Positions 30,462 to 62,015 of a DNA stretch of 64,000 nucleotides are shown here, piece after piece (position 1 is the stretch's first letter; every line of letters starts with the position of its first letter). This DNA comes from a virus (taxonomy: Duplodnaviria; Caudoviricetes): IMG/VR virus record IMGVR_UViG_3300032254_000001, positions 224,001-288,000 of that record. One strand, 5' to 3'. The notes below the pieces were generated by a model. The model did not search any database. It saw only the letters and a list, made by a program, of their open reading frames with translations, and had not been told where the DNA came from. Both the position numbers and the translations under genes were made by a program.

Positions 30462-31286
30462 TTAGTCGATACCGTCAGCTTTATTTTGAGCTAAGATTTC
30501 ACGCTTGCGCATCATACGCTCAATTCTTGATTTTGACAGGTTGAAGAAATACTCTGCTACACGCTCATGCCAGTGATGGTCTGGGTGCATTCCATCACGT
30601 GCAAATGAATCTATCACAAATGGATTGTTATCGTGCATCTGAAAATTAGTCAGAGTTTCTATAACAGGATTAGAAAAGAATGTAGCAGCATGATTATTAT
30701 ACAAGCTCTCTACAAAGCTATAATTCTTGTTAAAGTTAAATGTTAAATAACTCTCATCTATCATAACCTTAGGAAAATGTTCGTTGTCAATAGCCGCTTG
30801 TATTACCTTATTATCGCCGTAAGGGGTTGGTAGTTCAAGTCTTGTAATTGGAGGCCAGTACACATACACTAAGTCAGGTTCCATATCCCTGTCTACTTTA
30901 TACAGTGTACGAGCAACATAATCTGTGCTTGCTCCGCTAGTTGCCAGGTTCCAGTTAGATGCAGTCTTACCTGTGAACTCTTGTATTTTAGCTTGTAGTC
31001 TAGCAGGCCATGTTTCTTCTTGCTTAACCCCAACACCAACTGTCATGCTGCATCCACATGCTACTATCCTAATGTCAGGCTCATCATAAAAACTATCGCC
31101 ACGATAACCATGTTCGTTGAATGTGTATGTAATGTCGCGCTCAAACTGTGCATGTTCTGGCTTATCTGTATCTAACCAATCCACTGTCATGTTAGGAGGA
31201 TACATTCCACTCATAGGAATCTCTTTTGCCCAGCCAGTTAATGCACTTGTGTTATGCAGGAATTGTCGTTGCTTCCATTTGCTCAT
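30462..31286 (-). CDS. SGNH/GDSL-hydrolase-like protein
   Basis: GCSMT.G.G block I, NLA.SGAS block II, DGMHP block V. Confidence 0.65.
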   Translation of the reverse strand: MSKWKQRQFLHNTSALTGWAKEIPMSGMYPPNMTVDWLDTDKPEHAQFERDITYTFNEHGYRGDSFYDEPDIRIVACGCSMTVGVGVKQEETWPARLQAKIQEFTGKTASNWNLATSGASTDYVARTLYKVDRDMEPDLVYVYWPPITRLELPTPYGDNKVIQAAIDNEHFPKVMIDESYLTFNFNKNYSFVESLYNNHAATFFSNPVIETLTNFQMHDNNPFVIDSFARDGMHPDHHWHERVAEYFFNLSKSRIERMMRKREILAQNKADGID

Positions 31287-31600
31287 ACACTAAAGCTCGT
31301 TCCACAACCGCATTGTGTTTTAGCTGCTGGATTTGATACAACAAATCGCTCGCCTTGTACATCTTTAGTGTAATCAAGTGTTGCCGTCTCAAGGTACTGA
31401 TAGCTCATTGGATCAATTAATACTACCGCACCTGTGTCATTAATAATGATATCGCCTTCGTCAATCTGTTCTGCGAATGCAAACACATAATTAAATCCAC
31501 TACAGCCACCGCCCGATATGCCAATTCGCATTGCCATTGCATTGTCTGTTTCATTAAGTAAATCAAATACTTTTTGTTCTGCTGCTTTTGTTAAATTCAT
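31283..31600 (-). CDS. iscA: A-type Fe-S cluster carrier (HesB/IscA/ErpA family)
   Basis: GGGCSGF.Y, NP.AK..CGCG.SF signature. Confidence 0.93.
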   Translation of the reverse strand: MNLTKAAEQKVFDLLNETDNAMAMRIGISGGGCSGFNYVFAFAEQIDEGDIIINDTGAVVLIDPMSYQYLETATLDYTKDVQGERFVVSNPAAKTQCGCGTSFSV

Positions 31601-31609
31601 AATATTTCT

Positions 31610-31810
31610 CTAGTTGTCACATGCGTTGTACGCTTTAATTAACGAGTCAAGTATTTCCTTATCGATCTCGTCTGCTATTCCCTTGGCCATTTGCTTGACT
31701 AAGATATCTCGAAAACTCATCGACATATCAAACTCGTCTTCGACCGGCGGTATGCCGTTCTTTAAACGGTCCCAAACTTCTGCTTTTTCTTTTGAAAGTT
31801 TCTTAGCCAT
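31610..31810 (-). CDS. WxxL-tagged small protein with major-capsid-like fragment
   Basis: EVWDRLK tag; MAKGIADEIDKEILDSL vs gp23 LAQEITAEIDQEILLSL. Confidence 0.75.
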   Translation of the reverse strand: MAKKLSKEKAEVWDRLKNGIPPVEDEFDMSMSFRDILVKQMAKGIADEIDKEILDSLIKAYNACDN

Positions 31811-31812
31811 AC

Positions 31813-32028
31813 TTATGATACTACTATCGGATCATCAGGAAATGCACTCACTAATTTCCATACTGTGCCAGTAAACACATATATCTGCGAATCGTCTTTA
31901 TTGTAAATCATTGCACCGGCTGCTGGCGGACCTGTCACTGAAGAATTCCAGCCGACTTCGGAAGTCTGCTTAATTCCGTTCTTTAAACGATCCCAAACTT
32001 CTGCTTGATCAGATGTTAGTTCTTTCAA
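31813..32028 (-). CDS. WxxL-tagged small protein with tail-fibre-like motif
   Basis: EVWDRLK tag; AGAMIYN....QIYVFTGTVW. Confidence 0.7.
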   Translation of the reverse strand: MKELTSDQAEVWDRLKNGIKQTSEVGWNSSVTGPPAAGAMIYNKDDSQIYVFTGTVWKLVSAFPDDPIVVS

Positions 32029-32404
32029 GTAGGTCTTCCTCTATTCTTTTCTGCTTATTCTCTTTACTAATATGATGAAGAAAGGCTGAGTGACTAACTT
32101 GCACTAAAAATCCAAATGGGTTATTGCTTTTAGTTGAGTCAAAATGCTGATATGAAATTAACATTTGCATAACCGCAGCTTGAACTAAATCATCTGCGTA
32201 CACTAGACTCTGATAATGTTTTCTGTGTAGTAGTCTATCCGCAAGTTCTATCATGTACTTGCCTAATGCTTGCGATACTTTGCCATCATTTTGTGCATAG
32301 TCTATAGCAATAAGCAAATCAGAATTGTTGTTGATTGGACCGTAATAGCCCCACGGGTCAACTAACTTATCCCATACTGCACGTTGGTCTTTATTCAACA
32401 GCAT
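32009..32404 (-). CDS. WxxL-tagged truncated gp55-like sigma factor paralogue
   Basis: AVWDKL tag; IELADR..HR.HY....YADDL..A......FDSTKSNNPFGF......AFL..I.KE.KQ aligns with the gp55 core at 60984..61961. Confidence 0.75.
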   Translation of the reverse strand: MLLNKDQRAVWDKLVDPWGYYGPINNNSDLLIAIDYAQNDGKVSQALGKYMIELADRLLHRKHYQSLVYADDLVQAAVMQMLISYQHFDSTKSNNPFGFLVQVSHSAFLHHISKENKQKRIEEDLLERTNI

Positions 32405-32711
32405 TGAGTTTGTCCCATATAGCTTCTTTCTCTAAGCGATCATGGAACTCAATCATTGCTGCTTTTCTTTCTTTCTTAAAAAGATCAAGTGCTATCTTGT
32501 GTGGGCAGTCCTCAGGGTACTCAGTTATGTTGTGTTCAGCTTCGCTTAAGCGACAAGAAACCCAAGTGTTGTCTGACTCGTAGTCCCTGCTGTGATCGCT
32601 TATGTGTAATGTTTCATCCCACTCGTAGTAATTTTTACATTCAAGTATATCTCTGCACATACTGTCATAATGTATTCTAAACATCTTTCCTCTGCTCTGC
32701 TGCAATTTCAC
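32391..32711 (-). CDS. Cys/His-containing WxxL-tagged protein
   Basis: ECK.Y.E.D..C..NI.EYPE.C.H; AIWDKL; paralogue of 33765..34031. Confidence 0.7.
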   Translation of the reverse strand: MKLQQSRGKMFRIHYDSMCRDILECKNYYEWDETLHISDHSRDYESDNTWVSCRLSEAEHNITEYPEDCPHKIALDLFKKERKAAMIEFHDRLEKEAIWDKLNAVE

Positions 32712-32937
32712 TAATTAATATATCAGCTAGTTCTTGTTCAACATCTATTCCGTGTAGGGACTCTAGGTCTTTAGCAACGTCAACAGTCCAACTAGCACGT
32801 AGCCTACGGGTCACAGGGCCAGTCTCCTTTAGGCGGTCCCAAACTTTTTCTTTCTCTCGTTGAATAGCTTCTTTCTGCTTCCGGATACCGTTGCGGATCT
32901 TTCGTTGGTTCACTTGTATTGCTGTCTCTTTCATCAA
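32677..32937 (-). CDS. WxxL-tagged small protein with major-capsid fragment
   Basis: KVWDRLK; TRRLRASWT..DLESLHGIDVEQE..EIAAE is 21/39 identical to gp23 residues 167-205. Confidence 0.8.
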   Translation of the reverse strand: MMKETAIQVNQRKIRNGIRKQKEAIQREKEKVWDRLKETGPVTRRLRASWTVDVAKDLESLHGIDVEQELADILISEIAAEQRKDV

Positions 32938-33166
32938 ACTTCCATTCTCCTAGTATATGTTTATTAAATTCTGTCATATCTTTAGTCAGACTGTCAATGT
33001 ATGCGTCTACTAAAGACCAATCGATCCCATACTTCTGGGGGAGTTGTGTTACCCCAGATAATTTCTTCCATATGGTCTCTTCTTCTTTTTGCAGCCGCTC
33101 TCTTTCTTTTCGCCTCTGCTCTTTTCTTTTTCCGCGGGTCCTGAAACGTTTCCGTCTTGAAGTCAA
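32804..33166 (-). CDS. Arg-rich WxxL-tagged protein
   Basis: TTG start with GGAGG SD; TIWKKL; N-terminus paralogous to the 33419 gene. Confidence 0.7.
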   Translation of the reverse strand: MTSRRKRFRTRGKRKEQRRKERERLQKEEETIWKKLSGVTQLPQKYGIDWSLVDAYIDSLTKDMTEFNKHILGEWKFDERDSNTSEPTKDPQRYPEAERSYSTRERKSLGPPKGDWPCDP

Positions 33167-33419
33167 AATGAAACCCTCCTACTGGTTCTATACCTGCTGT
33201 TTGTTCGCCCATTGGCTGTACACCAACTAAGTCGTCTGCAATCATTACAGGTGCTATGCGTCTCATTAACGGCATTAAAATAGCGCCAAGATCATCCCAA
33301 TCGTATTCAGGTGGTAGTGGCGGGCTAACATTTGTTAACTTGTTCCAAGTCTCTAACGACTCTTTCCTTAGTGCTTTACGCTTACCACGCTGCCTACGTC
33401 TGCGCCTGACACTAGTCAT
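32994..33419 (-). CDS. Arg-rich WxxL-tagged protein with Gol-like major-capsid fragment
   Basis: ETWNKL and EVWDRL tags; LGAILMPLMRRIAPVMIADDLVGVQPM is 14/27 identical to gp23 residues 57-83. Confidence 0.8.
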   Translation of the reverse strand: MTSVRRRRRQRGKRKALRKESLETWNKLTNVSPPLPPEYDWDDLGAILMPLMRRIAPVMIADDLVGVQPMGEQTAGIEPVGGFHFDFKTETFQDPRKKKRAEAKRKRAAAKRRRDHMEEIIWGNTTPPEVWDRLVFSRRIH

Positions 33420-33765
33420 CGTCGGTAATATCCTTAGGTTTAGGTTTCATTATTATAACATTATCATGCTCGTCGGACTTCTCGTATTTGTTCTTAATAC
33501 TATCTAACTTTTCTTCAAATGTGTCGCAGGCCCACTCGTTTAATTGATTGTATAAGTCAGCAGCACCAGGCGTCACAGTGTGTCTAAATGTTTCTGTTTT
33601 TGAATCATAATTGCTGATTATACGTTCTATTCGTATTACCCGCTTCCTGCGCCACCAAGACTTGAAATGAATAGTAAAAACATCATAAACCTTTGTGCCA
33701 ATCTTATGCTCCATTGTGTGCTCGAAGTATTCGATTTTATCAAAAAATTCTTTAGGTAGTATCAT
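33412..33765 (-). CDS. Hypothetical protein (no tag)
   Basis: 117-aa coupled ORF. Confidence 0.65.
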   Translation of the reverse strand: MILPKEFFDKIEYFEHTMEHKIGTKVYDVFTIHFKSWWRRKRVIRIERIISNYDSKTETFRHTVTPGAADLYNQLNEWACDTFEEKLDSIKNKYEKSDEHDNVIIMKPKPKDITDDD

Positions 33766-34031
33766 TATAGGACCTGTATATGTACTGGATCACGTAAAAG
33801 TGATTTTACTGTTCTATGGGGTTGATTCAATTTCTTCCACATTATATCTTGTTGCTTTGCTTTATCTTTCGCAATGGTAATATCTTCAAGGTGCAAACAA
33901 CCTTCTGGATATTTAATAATGTTAATCGTCACACCCATTACAATACAGGAATGACATTTACCAACCTGCATATCAAACTCTCTGTGGTACTTGCATTCCT
34001 TTGATTTACAAAATTCATTAAAGTTATACAT
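33765..34031 (-). CDS. Cys/His-containing WxxL-tagged protein
   Basis: ECKYH.EFD..C..NI.KYPEGC.H; IMWKKL. Confidence 0.7.
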   Translation of the reverse strand: MYNFNEFCKSKECKYHREFDMQVGKCHSCIVMGVTINIIKYPEGCLHLEDITIAKDKAKQQDIMWKKLNQPHRTVKSLLRDPVHIQVL

Positions 34032-35055
34032 GCTCTACAACTACTTTTACATTTGGAAACGGTGTTATAAACTGCCCACATGCAGACTGAATTTCAACTC
34101 CGGTTGAAATTTGTATCTTTAAATTATTGTGAAACTTTGCAAACTGCACAATAATTTCCTTAAAGCGATCGCTTTCTTCCATTTCGTTAGCATCACATCT
34201 GTTATAGCGTAGTACTCTGAACTCGTAGTCTTCTAGATTCCACTTAGTGATAAAATCAAACAATGCTTGCACTTCTTCTTCGCTATCGTTAACACCATCC
34301 ATAAACATATGATGGAATATTAAATTATGTTTGTTGTTGTCTGCGTACTTTAACAGCTTCGGCATTGCTTCTTCCAATGGCATAGCTCCAGGAATAATTT
34401 GATCCCTAGTCTCTTGTACTGCACTGTGCAACGAATAAAACAATCTAAATGGACTGCGCTGTATGTAATTGCCCATTGATGATTGTGCTTCACTATGCAC
34501 AACAACCTTGTTATTTGGATTAGTTCCAAATGATTTTAGGTCTTCATTGAGCTCGTGAAATATGTCAATCCAATCATCGTTTCTAATTTTAGGTAGCACT
34601 GTTGAAAGATCAACACCATCTAAGCCTGCTGCGTAGTTGTTATCTGTTACGTAGTTTAACACATCGTTGGTTGCTCTGTACACCCCTGCTGGGTTAAGAA
34701 TTGCTTCGCCCATGCCCATCCAGCATACTTTCATGTATCTGCTTGCTATGCTTGCATCGTGTTGCACTGCATGATCAATTGCATCAATAAGATTTGATTG
34801 CACTGTAGTAATTGGCAGCTTCTTGTAAGGCATTTCTTTCATTGTTAAGTAACAGAAGTCACACTGCATCGGGCATCCGCCGCTAATCGATGCGAACACT
34901 GAATACTTATTTCTGTTAATAGGATTCATTTCCAGTACACCAGTTACTGGATTTCTAATTGTGTCGCAGCTTGAAACAGTTTTTATTGCAGTTTCAGACG
35001 TGTCGCTATGCACATACTTTGTTACTAGTCCGTCATCTGATTCAAAAACTTCCAT
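34024..35055 (-). CDS. RlmN/Cfr-like radical SAM protein
   Basis: GCPMQCDFC, MGMGE, SLHSA, EI.SACGQ motifs. Confidence 0.85.
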   Translation of the reverse strand: MEVFESDDGLVTKYVHSDTSETAIKTVSSCDTIRNPVTGVLEMNPINRNKYSVFASISGGCPMQCDFCYLTMKEMPYKKLPITTVQSNLIDAIDHAVQHDASIASRYMKVCWMGMGEAILNPAGVYRATNDVLNYVTDNNYAAGLDGVDLSTVLPKIRNDDWIDIFHELNEDLKSFGTNPNNKVVVHSEAQSSMGNYIQRSPFRLFYSLHSAVQETRDQIIPGAMPLEEAMPKLLKYADNNKHNLIFHHMFMDGVNDSEEEVQALFDFITKWNLEDYEFRVLRYNRCDANEMEESDRFKEIIVQFAKFHNNLKIQISTGVEIQSACGQFITPFPNVKVVVEHV

Positions 35056-35290
35056 TGGTATTCCTCTTCAATGAGTCCGGGTGAATTATTTCGTTACGAA
35101 CTCTGTTGTTTTCTCTTTCCCTTGCTGCTTCCATCTCTGCTAGTATCTCGTCTTGGATGCGACGAACTGCTTCTTCCATACGTCCTACCATGTGTCGTAG
35201 CATCTCTTCCCATTCCGTGTCATGGATAGAAGGTTCTTCCTGCAGACCGTTCTTTAAGCGATCCCAGACTTCTTCTTGCTCTGTGTTCAT
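35042..35290 (-). CDS. WxxL-tagged small protein
   Basis: EEVWDRLKNG. Confidence 0.7.
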   Translation of the reverse strand: MNTEQEEVWDRLKNGLQEEPSIHDTEWEEMLRHMVGRMEEAVRRIQDEILAEMEAARERENNRVRNEIIHPDSLKRNTNGSF

Positions 35291-35472
35291 GCCGTTGTGT
35301 CCGATACTATTGTTATAGCCTTGTCAGCTCGAAGCACCTGTGTTGACCAATATATCGATCGATACATAAGTGGTTCAAATTTAACCTTAGGCTCTGGAAC
35401 ATGCTTAAGCTTTTCCCACACCAGTTCTTTATCACTGGGTTCTGCAGATGTTACTTTCTTGACTTTTGCCAC
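35287..35472 (-). CDS. WxxL-tagged small protein
   Basis: ELVWEKLKHVPEPK, shared with the 36567 gene. Confidence 0.65.
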   Translation of the reverse strand: MAKVKKVTSAEPSDKELVWEKLKHVPEPKVKFEPLMYRSIYWSTQVLRADKAITIVSDTTA

Positions 35473-35671
35473 TAAATTTTAATGCGAAAATTATCGCATC
35501 CTCCTTATACTCAAACCACCAACGTGTGTTAGTGTAATGGTGATAAAAACATCCACCATCTTGTTGTTCGACACACCACTTGTGAGCTTCTTTAATACAG
35601 TCACGACATGGTGGTGGAACAACAAACCATAATTCATTACGATGTTCCTTAGGTGGATTACACCACTTCAC
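35432..35671 (-). CDS. Small 'W.FE..DA..F.LK' family protein
   Basis: KWC...WWFEYKEDAIIFALKF. Confidence 0.7.
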   Translation of the reverse strand: MKWCNPPKEHRNELWFVVPPPCRDCIKEAHKWCVEQQDGGCFYHHYTNTRWWFEYKEDAIIFALKFSGKSQESNICRTQ

Positions 35672-35919
35672 TCATCTTTACCTACTACCACATACTCGAC
35701 GCTAGATACGCCGTCACCTAAATCTTTGTGTACTAATTTAGTTTCCACCTTACCTCCTCGCATATCAGCGAACAGTTGCGATGCTTTTTTAAGTTCTTCT
35801 TCTGTGTTCTCTACTTCTTTCCAATTCGAAGCCTTGCTCAGCTTTTCCCACATTAATTCCTTATCGTCATCTTCTGTAGTCTTGCCAAGAAGTATTCTTT
35901 TAAAACGTTCTAAGTTCAT
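35668..35919 (-). CDS. WxxL-tagged small protein
   Basis: ELMWEKLS. Confidence 0.7.
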   Translation of the reverse strand: MNLERFKRILLGKTTEDDDKELMWEKLSKASNWKEVENTEEELKKASQLFADMRGGKVETKLVHKDLGDGVSSVEYVVVGKDE

Positions 35920-36143
35920 TTGTCGATTGTACTCTCAATATCGAAATACATTGTTTTACCAGCTCCGCGTCGTGCTGCTATTACAACCAATTCACCTTTG
36001 CCAACACCACCACACAATGCTCTACCTAATTGCTGTTGGTACCATGTTAGGCCGTTGCCATTAAATGGTGGTACATACTCTGTGGATAACTTTTCCCACA
36101 TTAGTTCCTGCTCAGCGGCTTTTGAGGATTTTGATTGTGACAT
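35916..36143 (-). CDS. WxxL-tagged protein with isolated P-loop (Walker A) fragment
   Basis: ELMWEKLS; GG...GELVVIAARRGAGKT. Confidence 0.75.
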   Translation of the reverse strand: MSQSKSSKAAEQELMWEKLSTEYVPPFNGNGLTWYQQQLGRALCGGVGKGELVVIAARRGAGKTMYFDIESTIDK

Positions 36144-36567
36144 TATTTGGATCCACCTCTTCTTTAGAAATACTTAGTATAGTGTCCATCATGCTCGGAT
36201 ATAATGAACTAATGTCATTATCAAACGTGCTACCCTTAGGCTGTGGAACATGTTTAAGCTTTTCCCAAACTTCTGCCTTTTCCTCTTCGATCTTCTGTAA
36301 TAAAATTTTAGCTTTAACACGGGTACCAAACACAGGACTTTTTGCAGCTTCCTGCAAGTCTGCTATCTCCATGCGGATCCGGTTGTCATGCTCCTCATCA
36401 GTATCAGTAATCATCCTAAGTCTAGCTTTTGCTCGTAGCCTAATGCCCATTGAATCATCCTTACTAAGGATTTTAAGATATTCCGGGCCATTGTTCATTA
36501 GCTCTATCTTCTCAGCTTCAGACATTGCCATTATTCTAATTTGGTCAAACAGATCAACTTCACTCAT
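36112..36567 (-). CDS. WxxL-tagged protein with DNA polymerase B motif-A fragment
   Basis: EVWEKLK; DISSLYPSMM. Confidence 0.75.
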   Translation of the reverse strand: MSEVDLFDQIRIMAMSEAEKIELMNNGPEYLKILSKDDSMGIRLRAKARLRMITDTDEEHDNRIRMEIADLQEAAKSPVFGTRVKAKILLQKIEEEKAEVWEKLKHVPQPKGSTFDNDISSLYPSMMDTILSISKEEVDPNNVTIKILKSR

Positions 36568-36797
36568 TTAAATTTTAATGCAAACAATGTTGCATCCTCT
36601 TCGTTTTCAAAATACCAATATGTTTCTCTAAATTCCACGTCCGCTTTATTTTCTTTATACCTGCGATAATATTGCCCTGATGAATTATGTCCTGTGCACC
36701 ATGATCCTTCCGCAGTATACGATCTAGATGCATGTCTAACTAATGTCACTTTATTCCACGGGTGGCCGTTAACATCGCCTATATCTTTATATTCCAC
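36564..36797 (-). CDS. Small 'W.FE..DA..F.LK' family protein
   Basis: WC..WYFENEEDATLFALKF. Confidence 0.7.
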   Translation of the reverse strand: MEYKDIGDVNGHPWNKVTLVRHASRSYTAEGSWCTGHNSSGQYYRRYKENKADVEFRETYWYFENEEDATLFALKFK

Positions 36798-36805
36798 AGT
36801 ACACC

Positions 36806-37198
36806 TTATTCATCAAACTTCTCATTTTTCAATTTATAAAATGTTTCAACGCTTTCTTCTGTGAACGGAACAAAGGTACTAGCCAATGCATCTTTGCCAG
36901 AAGTAAAATAAAATATCCAACCGCCCGGTACACGTTCAGCACAGGTATCGTCGTGTATATCTAAGCGATCATAATGTGGCATGGTATACAGTTGCCTGCG
37001 ATTCTTAGCATAGACCACTTCCCTTACTGCGGCTTCTTTAGCAGCCTCATCCATTTCTGCCCTGTGTTTCGCCATTATTTTGTCAATGCGATCACGGCGT
37101 TCTAATTCTTCACGTAGGCCTTTTGCCTTAGCTGCGTCTTTAGCTTCTTGCTCTTTCTTTTCTTTTAGTAGCTGCCGGTCTGCTTTACTTTTCCACAT
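36806..37198 (-). CDS. Hypothetical protein
   Basis: Start at MWKSK after GAGGAG; RVPGGWIF C-terminal motif. Confidence 0.65.
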   Translation of the reverse strand: MWKSKADRQLLKEKKEQEAKDAAKAKGLREELERRDRIDKIMAKHRAEMDEAAKEAAVREVVYAKNRRQLYTMPHYDRLDIHDDTCAERVPGGWIFYFTSGKDALASTFVPFTEESVETFYKLKNEKFDE

Positions 37199-37508
37199 CG
37201 TGGTACTCCTCGGGAGGAGCTGCAATTGCTTCTAAGTCGTATACCACTCGTTTAATGTACTGGAACTTTGATTCCGGATCATCGCATAATGCCATCCATG
37301 CTAATTCCTTATTAAACTTGAATTTAAGTGTGTTAGCTACGCCATTGGTATAGCGATTGATACGGCTAAGTTCAGCTTCGTGGTCACGTTTAACCCGAAG
37401 GAACTGCTTTTCGCGGTAGTTAATATGCTGGGCTTGGCCTTTAGCCTTGTCTTCCAGATCCTTTATTTGCTGTTTAAGATCCTTAATTATATCGCGTTTT
37501 GATGCCAT
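37185..37508 (-). CDS. Hypothetical coiled-coil protein; first gene of the tagged operon
   Basis: Directly after the promoter at 37541-37569. Confidence 0.65.
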   Translation of the reverse strand: MASKRDIIKDLKQQIKDLEDKAKGQAQHINYREKQFLRVKRDHEAELSRINRYTNGVANTLKFKFNKELAWMALCDDPESKFQYIKRVVYDLEAIAAPPEEYHDVEK

Positions 37509-38465: not shown

Positions 38466-38678
38466 TCATTTTAAGTCATCTTTTAGTGTAACACTTACTG
38501 GATATTTAATACCATCTTTGGTATGCTCTAATATCATGTGTGCTAGTTCGGATATAGTAGGATCTGGGTCGTTCTTAAATACATCAAGATGCTTACCATA
38601 ACGTACCATTATGAACTTTTCTTCAAACGGTAAGGAGTAGTACTTGATGTGATCAAATACATTTGATTCATTTGCCAT
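38466..38678 (-). CDS. Small hypothetical protein
   Basis: FIMVRYG, weakly like the LILKYG family. Confidence 0.6.
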   Translation of the reverse strand: MANESNVFDHIKYYSLPFEEKFIMVRYGKHLDVFKNDPDPTISELAHMILEHTKDGIKYPVSVTLKDDLK

Positions 38679-38885: not shown

Positions 38886-38958
38886 AGTATAACAATTTAA
38901 AATGCGTTTGTCAACCTTATCGTAATATTTGACTTATACCCATTTTGCATGTTACACT
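38886..38958. promoter_or_regulatory. Back-to-back sigma70 promoters
   Basis: Minus: TTGACA-17-TATACT (38914-38886). Plus: TTGACT-18-TACACT (38929-38958). Confidence 0.7.
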
Positions 38959-52296: not shown

Positions 52297-54099
52297 TTAT
52301 TTTTCGGTGTAATCTTTATTAAGCCACGACGTCACTTCTTCTATACAAGTGTTAGGGTGGCTGTCTAATATAAATTCTATTGTTTTAATAACATCTGCAC
52401 ACGGTGTTCCGTTGCCTGTCCAACTATCTCTGCTTCTGCTTAGTGGTGTATCAAGTCTGTCAAAGTTAATTAAAGATGTTTTAAACGGTACTAAGTTATC
52501 TTTGAATGCTCGTGTGCATTGTTTGCTGGCATGTTCTAGAGCTGCTTTACTAACACGATAACGTTCAAATGATGGGTCTGGCGCAACTATATCCTTAAGA
52601 CCTGTGCTGCCTATGTTTATAATATGCCCCTGCTTATTTGCTGCTTTCCATGCATCGTATACAGCAATTAACAAGTTGACTTGTGCGAAGTTACTATGCG
52701 CTTCGCCTGCAGGACCATCAAATGCATTATTAATGAATACATCGTAATTAAGTGATTCTTGCACTATACGATCTATGTCGTATGGGTTAGTAATGTCTGC
52801 TTGCATGTCGGAATCTTCAGAGCGAGAAACGTTTACGCCTCTGAAGTGATTAATTAGTTCTAACCCTAATCCTCTATTTCCGCCTGTGATTAAATATTTG
52901 TTGCCCTGTGGTTCCAATTGATCCCATACCTTGTAAAATTCTTTACCACAAGTTAAAGCACATTCAAATAAACGTCCTTCTCCTAGTGGCTTGTTAAAAC
53001 TGTCTGTGACTTCTGTCCAGAACGGCTGTTTCATTATGTCAGCTAGTGTGTTGTGCTGTATACTTAATGTATTAAATGCATCATGCCTATTAAACAGATC
53101 CCGTATTTGATTTTCACCATTAGGTAAGAATGCCATATCGCTAGCACCAGGGAGTATATCCCTGTCATGGAAGCGAGCATCGTATAAATTATGATTGAAA
53201 AAGTTGCACGGCATAACAAGCCCATTGGCTGTTACTAATAATTTGCTTTTCTGGTTCTCACCATTGCCGTGGTGCGTACATAATGCATCGCATGTAATTG
53301 GTGTGCTACTAAAATACTTATGTAGATCATCATTATACTTGTCTTTAAGCTTTGGTAAATGTACCATGCTCTTATTTCGGTGGTCAAGCTCAGCAGGGTA
53401 TTCGATGTTGTATTCAACGTTGCCTGCTTTATCTTCTTTAGGCCATTGCTTAAGCTCACTGAAGTTGTTATATTCTAGGAATCTACCTGTAGAACGTTGA
53501 TTAAAAGATTCGAAGCCTATTAATGCTGCAAGCATACTAGCTTCTGCTACTTGGTGTTCGTTGTGCTTAAACACAATGAAATTCCATGCAGCTTTACCAC
53601 CTGCACGAATAAACGCTTCTGCATTTGTTATAATCTTATCGAAATCTGTATTACAGCGATACAAGTGATTTGTATCTTTAAGCCCATCTATGTTAAATTC
53701 TACTTTACCGTGTTCGCCAATGATCTCTGCAAGTTCTGCCCACCATTCGGTTTTACGTGCGCCACCATTTGTGTGTATTAAGATCCACAATGTGGGGTTT
53801 TTAGCACGAAAATCACGTAAAATATCTAAGAACTCTGGGTGTACAATTGGATCACCGTACCCTCCGCAGAAGAATATCTGGCGTAAATTAGCACAGATCT
53901 CTTTAGTAAAAGCTGTGTCAATGCATTCACGTGACAAGTGTTCTTTAACGATATGTGGGTTTTCTTTGCCACCATTTAAGTTCCTTGGGCACTGCGGACA
54001 CGCCGCATTGCAGAAATTAGTAATCTCTAGCTGGAACTCATCTACATTGTCTAGTTTAAATTTCAGGGAGGTCACCATCGTCAAAGAAGTCTTTAGCAC
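52297..54099 (-). CDS. Radical SAM domain fused to a short-chain dehydrogenase/reductase
   Basis: CNAACPQC, F.GG.GDP, TNG; C-terminal ITGGNRGLG, NNA, YRVSK. Confidence 0.85.
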   Translation of the reverse strand: MLKTSLTMVTSLKFKLDNVDEFQLEITNFCNAACPQCPRNLNGGKENPHIVKEHLSRECIDTAFTKEICANLRQIFFCGGYGDPIVHPEFLDILRDFRAKNPTLWILIHTNGGARKTEWWAELAEIIGEHGKVEFNIDGLKDTNHLYRCNTDFDKIITNAEAFIRAGGKAAWNFIVFKHNEHQVAEASMLAALIGFESFNQRSTGRFLEYNNFSELKQWPKEDKAGNVEYNIEYPAELDHRNKSMVHLPKLKDKYNDDLHKYFSSTPITCDALCTHHGNGENQKSKLLVTANGLVMPCNFFNHNLYDARFHDRDILPGASDMAFLPNGENQIRDLFNRHDAFNTLSIQHNTLADIMKQPFWTEVTDSFNKPLGEGRLFECALTCGKEFYKVWDQLEPQGNKYLITGGNRGLGLELINHFRGVNVSRSEDSDMQADITNPYDIDRIVQESLNYDVFINNAFDGPAGEAHSNFAQVNLLIAVYDAWKAANKQGHIINIGSTGLKDIVAPDPSFERYRVSKAALEHASKQCTRAFKDNLVPFKTSLINFDRLDTPLSRSRDSWTGNGTPCADVIKTIEFILDSHPNTCIEEVTSWLNKDYTEK

Positions 54100-54580
54100 T
54101 GTTTAGCACGTCTTTACTTGTCTTGAATACAGTACCATCAAGATTAGGCCCGTTCTGCCTTGACTGTATCAGCCAATCGATAGCAGGGTAGAATATTTGT
54201 AGTTTCCACTGTCCGTTAAAGCCTAGGTACAAGTTAGGGGTAATAGATGCAGGATTCTCATCTGAGTTAAAATCGTATATTGGCCAAAACACACCGCTGT
54301 TAAGCTCTTCTAATGTAAGCTCGACATCGTCTAGCTTTATAGATTTAATGTATACGTGCTTATCTGCAATAACATTACCGATAGCATCGTATTCGTGATC
54401 GTGTATTGTTTTACCAAAGTGTGTAATAATTAAGTAGTGTTCGCCACTAACTAAATTAATGTCTGCTTCAATGTGATCAGGACAATCACCCTCACACAAT
54501 ACATCGTAGTCGCCTACTTGTATTTTAATTTTTGGGTTGCCGAGCTTACGCTCAACTGCAAAATCGATTTCAATTTTCAA
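54056..54580 (-). CDS. Hypothetical protein in the radical SAM operon
   Basis: 174 aa, coupled. Confidence 0.7.
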   Translation of the reverse strand: MKIEIDFAVERKLGNPKIKIQVGDYDVLCEGDCPDHIEADINLVSGEHYLIITHFGKTIHDHEYDAIGNVIADKHVYIKSIKLDDVELTLEELNSGVFWPIYDFNSDENPASITPNLYLGFNGQWKLQIFYPAIDWLIQSRQNGPNLDGTVFKTSKDVLNSAKDFFDDGDLPEI

Positions 54581-56091
54581 TGTATAACTCCGACTAGTTT
54601 ATCTAGTTGTGTAAGGCGCTTCTTGTATTGATCCATTAGTATCCTTAACTGGTCGTCGCCCTTCCAGAATGTATATCCTAAATCAACTGCTAATTCCTGT
54701 GCTTCGATTCTACGCTTAATGCGTTCTTTGTACGTTAGTGTAGGATTGCCTAAACAAATCCAATCTGGGCCGTGTGGGTGATTTCCATTTTTACCAATGA
54801 TATTCATCTTTTGGTGTTCTTCCCACAGCGGAGTGCCTTCTTCGATAGTTAATGTAGTGCCTAAGTTAACACCAATGATAGTGCCATCCGCTACGTACTT
54901 CTGATATCGCTTAAGCATGTTTAATGTATCTTCAAAGTCTTCACGTGTTTCTGTTGGCCATCCGACGATAATAAGGAAATAAATCGCAATGCGATGTTTA
55001 CTAAACATTTCCATAGTGTAGTCAAGGTCTTCGTTAGTGAATCCCTTTTTCATATCTTCTCTAACTTTATCGCTTCCAGTTTCGACACCTACTACCATAG
55101 TCTCGGCACCTGCCCTAGCCATCATTTCGTAATCTTCGTCTTTGAATTTACTAGCTGATCTAATAATGTAGTGGCTACTGTAGTTTAAGAATCGTTCTGG
55201 TAAGTTATTTTGTTCGTAGTACTCAACAAGTAACTTGTTAAACACTCTAAAATCTTTAAGGCTGCCATTGCATAACGCATCGTGGAAAAAGAAATCCTCG
55301 ACATCGTATTGATCGTAGTAATGAATCATTTCATCAAACAATTGCTGACCTGATTTAAATCTAAAGCCGCCTTGCATAAGTGGAATGTCGCAGAACTTAC
55401 AACGTCTGATACATCCACGTGATGTTTCAATAGGTAATACACCTTTATTGAAACCGCTGAAATATTTAGAAACGGGAACATCGTCGAAGTTCATAAAATT
55501 ATGTTCGGCTACATTACTGTACGGAGCAAGTGTATTGCTATCAATACCTTGTGCATCGAAGTTGCCGGCTACTATATGCTTTATAGTAGTTTCAGCTTCG
55601 CCACGCACCCAATGGGCTATAAGCCCTTTGTCTTTAAGTACTTGCATGTACGGAACTTCACTTGAATAGCTGCCGTGTTCTTCACGTTTTAATCCTTGCC
55701 CACCTATTATAACAGGAATGCCTTCTTCTTTTATCAACTTTAAGAAATCTCCAAGGAACTTATGACTTTGCCATGTAAATGCGCTAATCATTATGTACGT
55801 TGGGTTATGTGCTTTTATTTTATCAATCCACTGCGTCATCCACTCGGAGTAGCTAGCAGTTTCTTCATCAGTCAAAGCATTTAAGTCGTCAAAGAAGTAC
55901 TCGTCAACTTTCCAATATGTGTTATCGCCGTATGTTTTTCTAAACTCTACAGCAAAGTCTAAGTTCATATCGTATACTTGTGACTCTTGTCCTTCAGCTT
56001 TTAATAAACTCTTAATGATCGCAGGAGCAGCTTGCGGACGTACTGCCGCAAAGCGAGGCACTGATAAAATTACAGCATATACCTCTTTCAC
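54577..56091 (-). CDS. Cobalamin-binding (class B) radical SAM protein
   Basis: N-terminal B12-binding-like domain; IETSRGC.RRCKFC; GVETGS..VR.DM.KG. Confidence 0.85.
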   Translation of the reverse strand: MKEVYAVILSVPRFAAVRPQAAPAIIKSLLKAEGQESQVYDMNLDFAVEFRKTYGDNTYWKVDEYFFDDLNALTDEETASYSEWMTQWIDKIKAHNPTYIMISAFTWQSHKFLGDFLKLIKEEGIPVIIGGQGLKREEHGSYSSEVPYMQVLKDKGLIAHWVRGEAETTIKHIVAGNFDAQGIDSNTLAPYSNVAEHNFMNFDDVPVSKYFSGFNKGVLPIETSRGCIRRCKFCDIPLMQGGFRFKSGQQLFDEMIHYYDQYDVEDFFFHDALCNGSLKDFRVFNKLLVEYYEQNNLPERFLNYSSHYIIRSASKFKDEDYEMMARAGAETMVVGVETGSDKVREDMKKGFTNEDLDYTMEMFSKHRIAIYFLIIVGWPTETREDFEDTLNMLKRYQKYVADGTIIGVNLGTTLTIEEGTPLWEEHQKMNIIGKNGNHPHGPDWICLGNPTLTYKERIKRRIEAQELAVDLGYTFWKGDDQLRILMDQYKKRLTQLDKLVGVIH

Positions 56092-60983: not shown

Positions 60984-61961
60984 TTATGAATCGTCAGTTT
61001 TCTTTTTGTTGGGGTTACACAAGTTATAATCGTATGCAAAGTCTTCTTTCTTGCCTTCGTTTGCAAACTGTCTAGTCCAACTAGGTGTTAGTCCGTTAGC
61101 TTCGAGAATATCATCACGTATATTTTGCATCTTCTTCTCAATGTTTAGTACACGAGTAAAGCTGTTAGTCACTGCGGCAGTGTAGTACGCAAATGGGTTC
61201 TGTGATTTAAGTTCATTAAACTGTAGCCCAATCTGTGATAGCTGCAATAACGCTTGTCCTTGCATCTCATCGTTATACGTATACCCACGCCAGTTACTAC
61301 GTGTGCCATAACGTTCGCATAGCTTTATGTACATCATAGCTAAGTTATTTGTAGTTCTGCCATGATCTTTGGTAAACTTGCCTTCTTCGATATCGCCCTT
61401 CCAGTGTGATTTACCTACTATTTCTGCAGATAGCTCACCATCTGTGTCTGTTACACGGTAATGGAAGAATGGAGGGAAGTTAACACGCATTGGTATCATT
61501 TCAACATCTGGATCAGTTGGTGATAATGATTGATCATCGTCAGTTTCGATTAGTTCGTCAAATACTGCGTTTGCTTTTGCTTGTTTCGCTGCTTTAGCTA
61601 ATGCCGCTTTTGATTTCTTCTTAGGCACTAGCGGAATGTGCTCATTGGTCATAACACGGAATACAACATCATGCAGTTCAACGTCTGCTACATCTGTCGG
61701 TATTTCTAACTTAGTGAGTCGTGTTGCTCGTGCTTGTCTAGCTAAATCAACGACGGGTACGTCTTTGAATGTAGGGTTACCGTTTTCGTCTTTGCCGACA
61801 TCAACGTTCTGTGTTCCCCAAATTTCTTCTAGTGATTCTACTATGAAGTCTTGCTGATTGTCCTCAACTTTATCTTTAAAGGAACAATATGATATTTTGC
61901 TTAGGTGTATTTCTTTAAGCATATCCTTATTATTTAAGTAATTCTTTTTTCTCTTAGCCAT
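60984..61961 (-). CDS. gp55: Late transcription sigma factor
   Basis: NYLNNKDML.EI; L.ERY..R.NWRGYTY.DEM; F.E.KS.NPFAYYT; start MAKRKK after GAGGA. Confidence 0.93.
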   Translation of the reverse strand: MAKRKKNYLNNKDMLKEIHLSKISYCSFKDKVEDNQQDFIVESLEEIWGTQNVDVGKDENGNPTFKDVPVVDLARQARATRLTKLEIPTDVADVELHDVVFRVMTNEHIPLVPKKKSKAALAKAAKQAKANAVFDELIETDDDQSLSPTDPDVEMIPMRVNFPPFFHYRVTDTDGELSAEIVGKSHWKGDIEEGKFTKDHGRTTNNLAMMYIKLCERYGTRSNWRGYTYNDEMQGQALLQLSQIGLQFNELKSQNPFAYYTAAVTNSFTRVLNIEKKMQNIRDDILEANGLTPSWTRQFANEGKKEDFAYDYNLCNPNKKKTDDS

Positions 61962-61987
61962 AAAATCCTCGTTGCTGTAGTGCATAC

Positions 61988-62015
61988 AGTATAACATGAT
62001 GTGCGTATTTGTCAA
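61988..62015 (-). promoter_or_regulatory. Sigma70 promoter TTGACA-16-TATACT for gp55
   Basis: Near-consensus hexamers. Confidence 0.65.

Follow-up and report, generated by a model that had tools for sequence, protein, structure and literature searches.

The window analyzed here is a 64,000-nucleotide stretch of DNA corresponding to positions 224001 to 288000 of a 344,483-bp virus record, which has direct terminal repeats and carries the T4-type genes for tail sheath, portal gp20, capsid gp23, and prohead protease. The public runs with matching DNA are microbial-mat metagenomes, and the phage is a giant, uncultured, T4-like phage of microbial-mat origin. DNA identical to window positions 35000 to 37300 is present in contigs from two microbial-mat metagenome studies, with a coverage of about 400x in one, possibly the source, and of 2 to 4x in the other. 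In the source run, the stretch containing the ORF under study, P0001, was assembled at about 400x, and variants were absent; in the second study, the pieces are identical, and the fusion junction of P0001 is not spanned by the contigs. The features at the locus are as follows.

31610..36567, minus strand: array of tagged mini-proteins including P0001 (tag scan, sequence matches, and synteny with contigs L090/L097)
36112..36567, minus strand: P0001, 151-aa ORF joining a helical N-module and a tagged mini-protein in a natural fusion (separate homologs for residues 1-95 and 91-151 by exhaustive HMMER)
36283..36567, minus strand: N-module of P0001, residues 1-95, predicted to be all-helical, with two D.S..VR.RAK..L HEAT-like repeats (family alignment and AF2)
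36253..36273, minus strand: tag EVWEKLK, residues 99-105 (residues 8-13 of the mini-protein part are EVWEKL)
36235..36252, minus strand: linker HVPQPK, residues 106-111, with V and the second P unchanged throughout the family (family alignment)
36187..36228, minus strand: block TFDNDISSLYPSMM, residues 114-127, resembling motif A of family-B DNA polymerase, PolB (translation, profile HMMs, hhalign, and motif expectation)
36187..36216, minus strand: polymerase motif-A decamer DISSLYPSMM (translation)
36115..36141, minus strand: VTIKILKSR at the C terminus, the best-conserved stretch of the tail and the predicted last beta-hairpin strand (alignment and AF2)
35916..36143, minus strand: 75-aa tagged mini-protein with a DnaB-type Walker A, the next gene after P0001 (phrog_19 at E 4.8e-5; the phage's own helicase at E 0.014)
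35287..35472, minus strand: 61-aa tagged paralog with the tail RSIYWS in place of SSLYPS (blastp E 4e-5 to residues 85-111 of P0001; mini-protein family HMM E 4.6e-7)
38886..38914, minus strand: strongest sigma-70-like promoter candidate (11 of 12, TG present), in the gap between divergent genes that precedes the small-gene cluster of the minus strand

The row consists of co-oriented, overlapping, tightly packed small genes with a common tag. The tag is found in 14 copies on the minus strand between 31777 and 36270, and its synonymous codons vary freely, which indicates that it is conserved at the protein level and is not a DNA repeat. It follows the pattern E-x(0-2)-[VMIT]-W-[EDKN]-[KR]-L near the start of products of 50 to 90 aa; the mini-protein part of P0001 conforms to this pattern, and in its stand-alone homologs the tag occupies residues 8 to 14. 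A role of the tag as a prohead-protease site or a capsid-targeting signal was considered and dropped, since several ORFs have the tag at an internal position and the residue after the Trp varies (E, D, K, or N). Several members carry sequences of core phage proteins. The Walker-A mini-protein gene lies directly 3' of the motif-A mini-protein gene in every contig (the window, L087, L089, L090/L097, L093, L095, L096, L098, and L100), two other tagged ORFs match the phage's own capsid protein (E values of 5e-10 and 1e-5), and a tagged ORF matches, at an E value of 2.5e-9, a 343-aa protein encoded at 60984..62015, which has been described as gp55-like (sigma). From the Trp codon of the tag through the linker, P0001 and the 61-aa paralog at 35287..35472 are identical at 34 of 36 nt (window 36270 versus 35421), and the other tag copies differ synonymously, a pattern that indicates recent gene conversion or duplication between the two. 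Untagged small paralogs are interleaved in the row (36564-36797 and 35432-35671, minus strand; L100:5650-5895) and share the C-terminal pattern W-[YW]-F-E-x-[EK]-E-D-A-x-[LI]-F-A-L-K-F; the 79-aa untagged paralog, rich in Cys, is better conserved than any other gene of the row, with about 70% identity to other contigs. The phage also carries three radical SAM genes and a gene for an ErpA/IscA-type Fe-S insertion protein (34024-35055, 31283-31600, 52297-54099, and 54577-56091, all on the minus strand). The radical SAM proteins comprise an RlmN/Cfr-like type without a clear equivalent of the first methyl-carrier Cys, a twitch/SPASM-like type fused to an SDR-like part, and a B12-binding type, and NifU is additionally encoded in the syntenic contig L090.

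The region from 38678 to 27708 is syntenic with L090/L097, with protein identities of 25 to 70%. In a comparison with 80 loci around capsid genes whose capsid protein is 80 to 89% identical, covering 914 kb, neither the tag nor any homolog of a row member was found, and five large related genomes, one of which is 100% complete at 374 kb, lack P0001 and do not contain the tag pattern in excess. The absence of the row from close capsid relatives indicates that it is an accessory, patchily distributed module. A word-indexed protein search with P0001 returned only P0001 itself, scans of viral contigs returned nothing with P0001 and one locus with the family alignment, and a blastn search with 2.6 kb against 50,697 phage records gave no match. 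The best sigma-70-like promoter match lies upstream of the small-gene cluster, and such sites in total are not more frequent than in shuffles, giving a weak hint that the cluster may be transcribed early; among public runs, no RNA run matching this DNA was found.

Two small genes that lie side by side as separate genes in related phage contigs are naturally fused in P0001. By exhaustive HMMER, eight cluster representatives of 83 to 103 aa match residues 1 to 98 only, and seven cluster representatives of 60 to 64 aa match residues 91 to 151 only. In contig L098, the stop of a gene of about 98 aa is followed on the very next base by the start of a 62-aa mini-protein gene, and in contig L100, the gene of about 98 aa and the mini-protein gene overlap by 11 nt. 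The frame of P0001 is uninterrupted, and ATG, GTG, and TTG are all absent between V78 and the tag. The original prediction, made from the window alone, gave the length of 151 aa correctly but took the protein as a single unit, which it is not: a helical module of about 95 aa is joined to a tagged mini-protein of about 60 aa. The N-module was modeled by AF2 as five helices with a pLDDT of 88. HEAT families are its nearest Atlas clusters (0.82 to 0.87), Pfam HEAT touches one of nine N-module members, at an E value of 0.096, and a Foldseek search against the PDB gave no significant fold match (best E value, 1.1); the designation HEAT-like is a lead only. A complex prediction for the N-module and the mini-protein, run without controls, scored 0.00. 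No catalogued family was found for the mini-protein or the N-module in Pfam, PHROG, NCBIfam, or PADLOC. A 70-aa ORF at window positions 38466-38678 on the minus strand is similar to the HEAT-like N-module over the first half of the latter (VFDHIKYYSLPFEEKF...GKHLDVFKNDPDP) and has an ortholog in L090 with 60% identity.

Translation of the minus strand confirmed that the 151-aa tagged protein contains DISSLYPSMM at 36187-36216, as had been predicted. The distance from the tag EVWEKLK to this decamer is 13 residues, and DISSLYPS occupies residues 118 to 125, with D118 as the equivalent of the catalytic Asp. When all six frames of the 344-kb genome are translated, D..SLYPS is found at two places, the true PolB and P0001, compared with 0.02 occurrences expected by composition in six frames and 0.005 in ORFs of at least 100 aa. 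The true PolB is a 918-aa protein encoded at genome positions 108229-110985 and is the sole PF00136 match across the whole genome. Motif A (D-x-x-S-L-Y-P-S), one of the features by which a family-B polymerase (PF00136 / PF03104) is recognized, is present in P0001, whereas motif B (K-x3-N-S-x-Y-G), motif C (Y-G-D-T-D-S), and the exonuclease motifs are absent, and the protein has 151 aa compared with about 600 to 900 aa for a family-B polymerase. Since motif A is its sole polymerase motif, P0001 was ruled out as a polymerase. Sequence searches of P0001 against Pfam, PHROGs, PADLOC, and the PDB gave no polymerase match, and the claim that the protein has no other polymerase features was thus borne out. 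A second motif-A-like stretch, IGVVDINVLYPSA, followed in register by ..MA, was found outside the window at L086:2485-2550 on the plus strand (genome positions 204984-205049) and matches the PolB HMM of the clade at an E value of 1.3e-4. It lies antisense within a 409-aa ORF and immediately upstream of a homing endonuclease of the HNH+NUMOD3 type (L086:1798-2397, minus strand); a mobile element that targets polymerase genes may have carried it there as a remnant. The PolB proteins of six related phages (P0016, P0018, P0036, P0047, P0060, and P0097) carry an intein in motif C, between YGD and S, near residue 630, and the phage's own PolB has no intein.

The mini-protein family has 10 members that are 32 to 67% identical. 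Conservation was counted on eight aligned members that are 40 to 53% identical to P0001, and two more, from L098 and L100, were read from the contigs. The layout is a predicted tag helix (E-x-W-[ED]-[KR]-L), an HVP.P linker, the motif-A block of about 14 residues, and a short predicted C-terminal hairpin ending in VTIKVLKNR. All eight members have the same W and L in the tag, V and P in the linker, D, S, and Y in the motif, and C-terminal V, K, K, and R. The motif reads D-[IV]-[NS]-S-[LM]-Y in the eight aligned members, and the next Pro is present in four of the eight and the final Ser in two. The original prediction depended on homologs conserving the SLYPS residues, which held for most of the motif (D, S, and Y invariant and Leu kept as Leu or Met) but not for its last two residues. 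The L098 member reads DINSLY; the L100 member has lost D..S and contains FYPSAI, which may be compared with LYPSAI of the clade PolB; together, the members spell DINSLY, SLYPS, and YPSAI. Homologs of the mini-protein gene occur in at least nine other contigs, and the gene is intact. In all 28 pairs of mini-proteins, pN is lower than pS, and dN/dS is 0.36 in the least saturated pair, indicating that, as judged from codon comparisons, the family is under purifying selection.

HVP is also present in a third tagged family, and the HVPQPK linker is probably an extension of the tag rather than derived from a polymerase. At window positions 36112-36143, the same 32 nt encode NVTIKILKSR and the stop of P0001 in one frame and MSQSKSSK, the start of the Walker-A mini-protein, in another; this overlap is kept in L087, L089, L090, and L095, with both peptides conserved, and the C-terminal conservation of the mini-protein may partly be imposed by the overlapping frame of the next gene. 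AF2 modeled the mini-protein with the tag in an N-terminal helix, a C-terminal hairpin, and the motif-A block as coil, at a pLDDT of 62, which is too weak for a fold search.

The relation of the block to polymerase motif A was assessed with profiles. With a clade motif-A HMM built from 94 distinct PolB sequences, P0001 ranks third of the 1896 ORFs of the genome (E value of 0.11), with DiNSLYPSair aligned to DISSLYPSMMD. The reverse search gave stronger evidence: the family HMM scores the phage's own PolB above everything else outside the array (E value of 0.017). An hhalign comparison of the ten-member family with the clade PolB alignment gave a score of 40.2 (P of 1.7e-5) on the motif-A columns, which none of 200 column shuffles reached (maximum, 26.1). 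With the tag and the HVP.P linker removed, the tail alone scored 39.8 (P of 7e-6) over 14 columns, and again none of 200 shuffles reached the score (maximum, 22.4); the linker is therefore not the driver of the match. The family consensus fDvnSlYp.q agrees with FDVNSLYPAQM of the phi29 polymerase at 9 to 10 of 11 positions, indicating a motif A of generic type, without adaptation to the phage's own enzyme. The polymerase likeness was not seen in Pfam or PHROGs or in phmmer and hmmsearch searches of the PDB with the tail and the family profile at E values up to 10. The block is very probably related to motif A, by descent or by functional convergence, and the family conservation together with the profile-profile match supports the original view of an isolated motif A kept under selection.

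The mini-protein may be a noncatalytic mimic of the polymerase active-site loop and possibly a competitive antagonist or decoy, a reading that is put forward tentatively, at somewhat less than an even chance. The block would have been derived from, or have converged on, the polymerase loop, with its metal-binding Asp, Ser, Leu/Met, and steric-gate Tyr, and would be kept because it mimics this invariant loop without catalysis. The mimic might be made early in infection and occupy whatever recognizes the loop, which might be a host protein that senses phage replication proteins, a factor that acts on the nascent polymerase, or an Mg-nucleotide-like ligand. The common tag would serve as a shared handle for all row members, and the fused HEAT-like module could be a dedicated partner or adaptor of the motif-A member. 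A decoy role, proposed originally as bait for defenses that sense the replisome, is made plausible by documented defense systems that sense phage polymerase, helicase-primase, SSB, and structural proteins (10.1101/2022.08.27.505566). Motif A is buried at the base of the polymerase cleft, so that it is no obvious surface for protein binding and would be hard to reach for a sensor that reads the folded enzyme, and to our knowledge no defense system reads motif A. For Borvo, a documented polymerase-sensing system, the escape mutations map to the proofreading (exonuclease) cleft of family-A polymerases, not to motif A (10.1101/2022.08.27.505566). Also against the mimic reading, the likeness covers about 14 columns, the L100 member lacks D..S, and the paralog has SIYWS; the last two facts indicate that the exact motif is not indispensable. 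The mini-protein could also be a trigger-like fragment that activates a sensor rather than blocking it.

Several other explanations account for part of these observations. The block could be an exapted scrap, that is, a leftover or convergent motif that aids folding, with the function residing in the tag, which might target RNA polymerase, the ribosome, or a chaperone, for example, and being unrelated to polymerases and to any sensor of them. In its favor, conservation of the tag and of the C-terminal VTIKVLKNR equals or exceeds that of the motif, one member is without D..S and the paralog has SIYWS, the last two residues of SLYPS drift, and no polymerase is seen in database-wide searches. However, D, S, and Y, exactly the residues that matter in polymerases, are invariant among sequences otherwise 40 to 53% identical, and several row members keep the most conserved stretch of different core proteins, a coincidence across the row that is hard to credit; this explanation is rather unlikely. 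That the family is real and its similarity to motif A is due to chance would fit the short alignment of about 14 columns, the marginal in-genome HMM E values (0.017 to 0.11), and the lack of any database-wide match. It is distinctly improbable in view of the hhalign P of about 1e-5 with 0 of 200 shuffles and the expectation of 0.005 to 0.02 for the exact octamer, and, in addition, the phage's own PolB is the top match outside the array, the members independently spell parts of DINSLYPSAI, and other row members contain clearly significant fragments of other proteins. A dominant-negative or regulatory peptide, docking on or co-folding with the family-B polymerase of a rival or of the phage itself and thereby poisoning or timing replication, is improbable. 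Fragments of a protein often bind the parent protein, the consensus is as close to the phi29-type motif A as to that of its own clade and so is not tuned to the phage's own enzyme, and the neighboring mini-proteins hold oligomerization-prone capsid and helicase pieces, but motif A lies in the central palm sheet, where a swap in trans needs co-folding with the parent enzyme.

The motif-A and Walker-A genes are always adjacent and overlapping, and they keep the phosphate- and metal-contacting residues (D-x-x-S-L-Y and G-x-G-K-[ST]), which would suit minimal nucleotide- or metal-binding loops, such as a sponge for immune signals or dNTPs; phage sponge proteins are an established anti-defense class. 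However, the capsid and sigma members of the row have no nucleotide loop, the 60-aa fold, modeled at low confidence, offers no pocket, and no similarity to known sponges was found, making such a role highly improbable. Two further explanations are, even when taken together, remote. The shared N-terminal motif, the variable tails, and the many small genes resemble multiprecursor RiPP clusters; on this view, the tag would correspond to the leader and the tail to the core peptide, which the row's radical SAM enzyme would modify. A radical SAM gene (34024..35055) does lie mid-row, with the ErpA-type Fe-S protein at the row end. That enzyme is, however, a relative of RlmN/Cfr-type RNA methyltransferases and not a peptide maturase, its position in the syntenic L090/L097 is taken by a different gene of 319 aa, and the one relative of it found among viral contigs (L004) is not accompanied by tagged genes. 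With no conserved cognate maturase, the RiPP precursor is largely refuted by synteny and is extremely improbable. Inert debris from a polymerase-targeting intein, intron, or homing endonuclease is brought to mind by the second motif-A-like stretch elsewhere in the genome, which adjoins an HNH-NUMOD homing endonuclease, and by the inteins in the PolB proteins of relatives. Those inteins are in motif C and not in motif A, P0001 contains no endonuclease or intein domain by Pfam or PHROGs, and the mini-protein gene is intact, evolves under purifying selection, and is present in at least nine other contigs. For the gene as it now stands, debris is refuted and barely credible; a mobile element may nevertheless be the origin of the motif-A raw material, though not of the present nature of the gene.

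Extended from the motif-A member to the whole row, the mimic reading becomes doubtful: the row could be a phage-encoded library of tagged epitope mimics, each presenting the least mutable stretch of a core protein and blunting host sensors or rival phages. The pieces of such a library would be the Gol region and the spine helix of the capsid protein, motif A of the polymerase, the Walker A of the helicase, and the core of the late sigma factor, and the tag and dedicated helical adaptors might deliver or assemble the mimics early in infection. Immunity often recognizes conserved phage proteins, which are hard for the phage to mutate, and if the reading is true, detached tagged copies of invariant stretches would be a new counterstrategy or interphage weapon and would point to the epitopes that matter. 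A 60-aa protein that keeps a polymerase metal and dNTP loop under selection is a compact and testable object, and the natural fusion points to the HEAT-like module as its probable partner. Should the decoy idea prove wrong, the family still illustrates how phages make new small genes by capturing pieces of their own core genes and placing them after a shared N-terminal motif. Full-text literature searches turned up no account of such rows of tagged core-protein fragments.

The mini-protein family shares Asp, Ser, Leu/Met, and Tyr with motif A of family-B polymerases, including gp43 of T4 and RB69, p2 of phi29, and the phage's own PolB, of which the clade form is VDINSLYPSAI. Unlike these enzymes, it has 60 aa, is without an exonuclease domain, motif B, or motif C, and cannot polymerize, and the match spans about 14 residues and is undetectable database-wide. 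The Gol region of T4 gp23 acts with the e14 Lit protease and EF-Tu and is likewise a short stretch of a core protein that is active once detached, and a row neighbor of the motif-A mini-protein carries the capsid stretch equivalent to Gol. However, Gol is an experimental fragment of a full-length gene, whereas the fragments of the row are separate, conserved genes with a common tag, and the one studied here is of the polymerase type. DSAD1, which acts against DSR2, is a phage anti-defense protein that blocks a sensor of a conserved phage protein (PMC11087589). Inhibitors of the DSAD1 type and Borvo offer a parallel in that small, probably early proteins of accessory regions are likewise involved and conserved phage proteins are what immunity recognizes; in contrast to the row mini-proteins, no sensor inhibitor is known to be a detached piece of the sensed protein. 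Polymorphic toxins and polyvalent proteins combine a conserved N-terminal module with swappable C-terminal cassettes, and the row resembles this architecture in its shared N-terminal handle, unrelated tails, and tandem arrays, but differs in that its tails are nonenzymatic fragments of the phage's own kind of core proteins and its handle is about 7 residues long.
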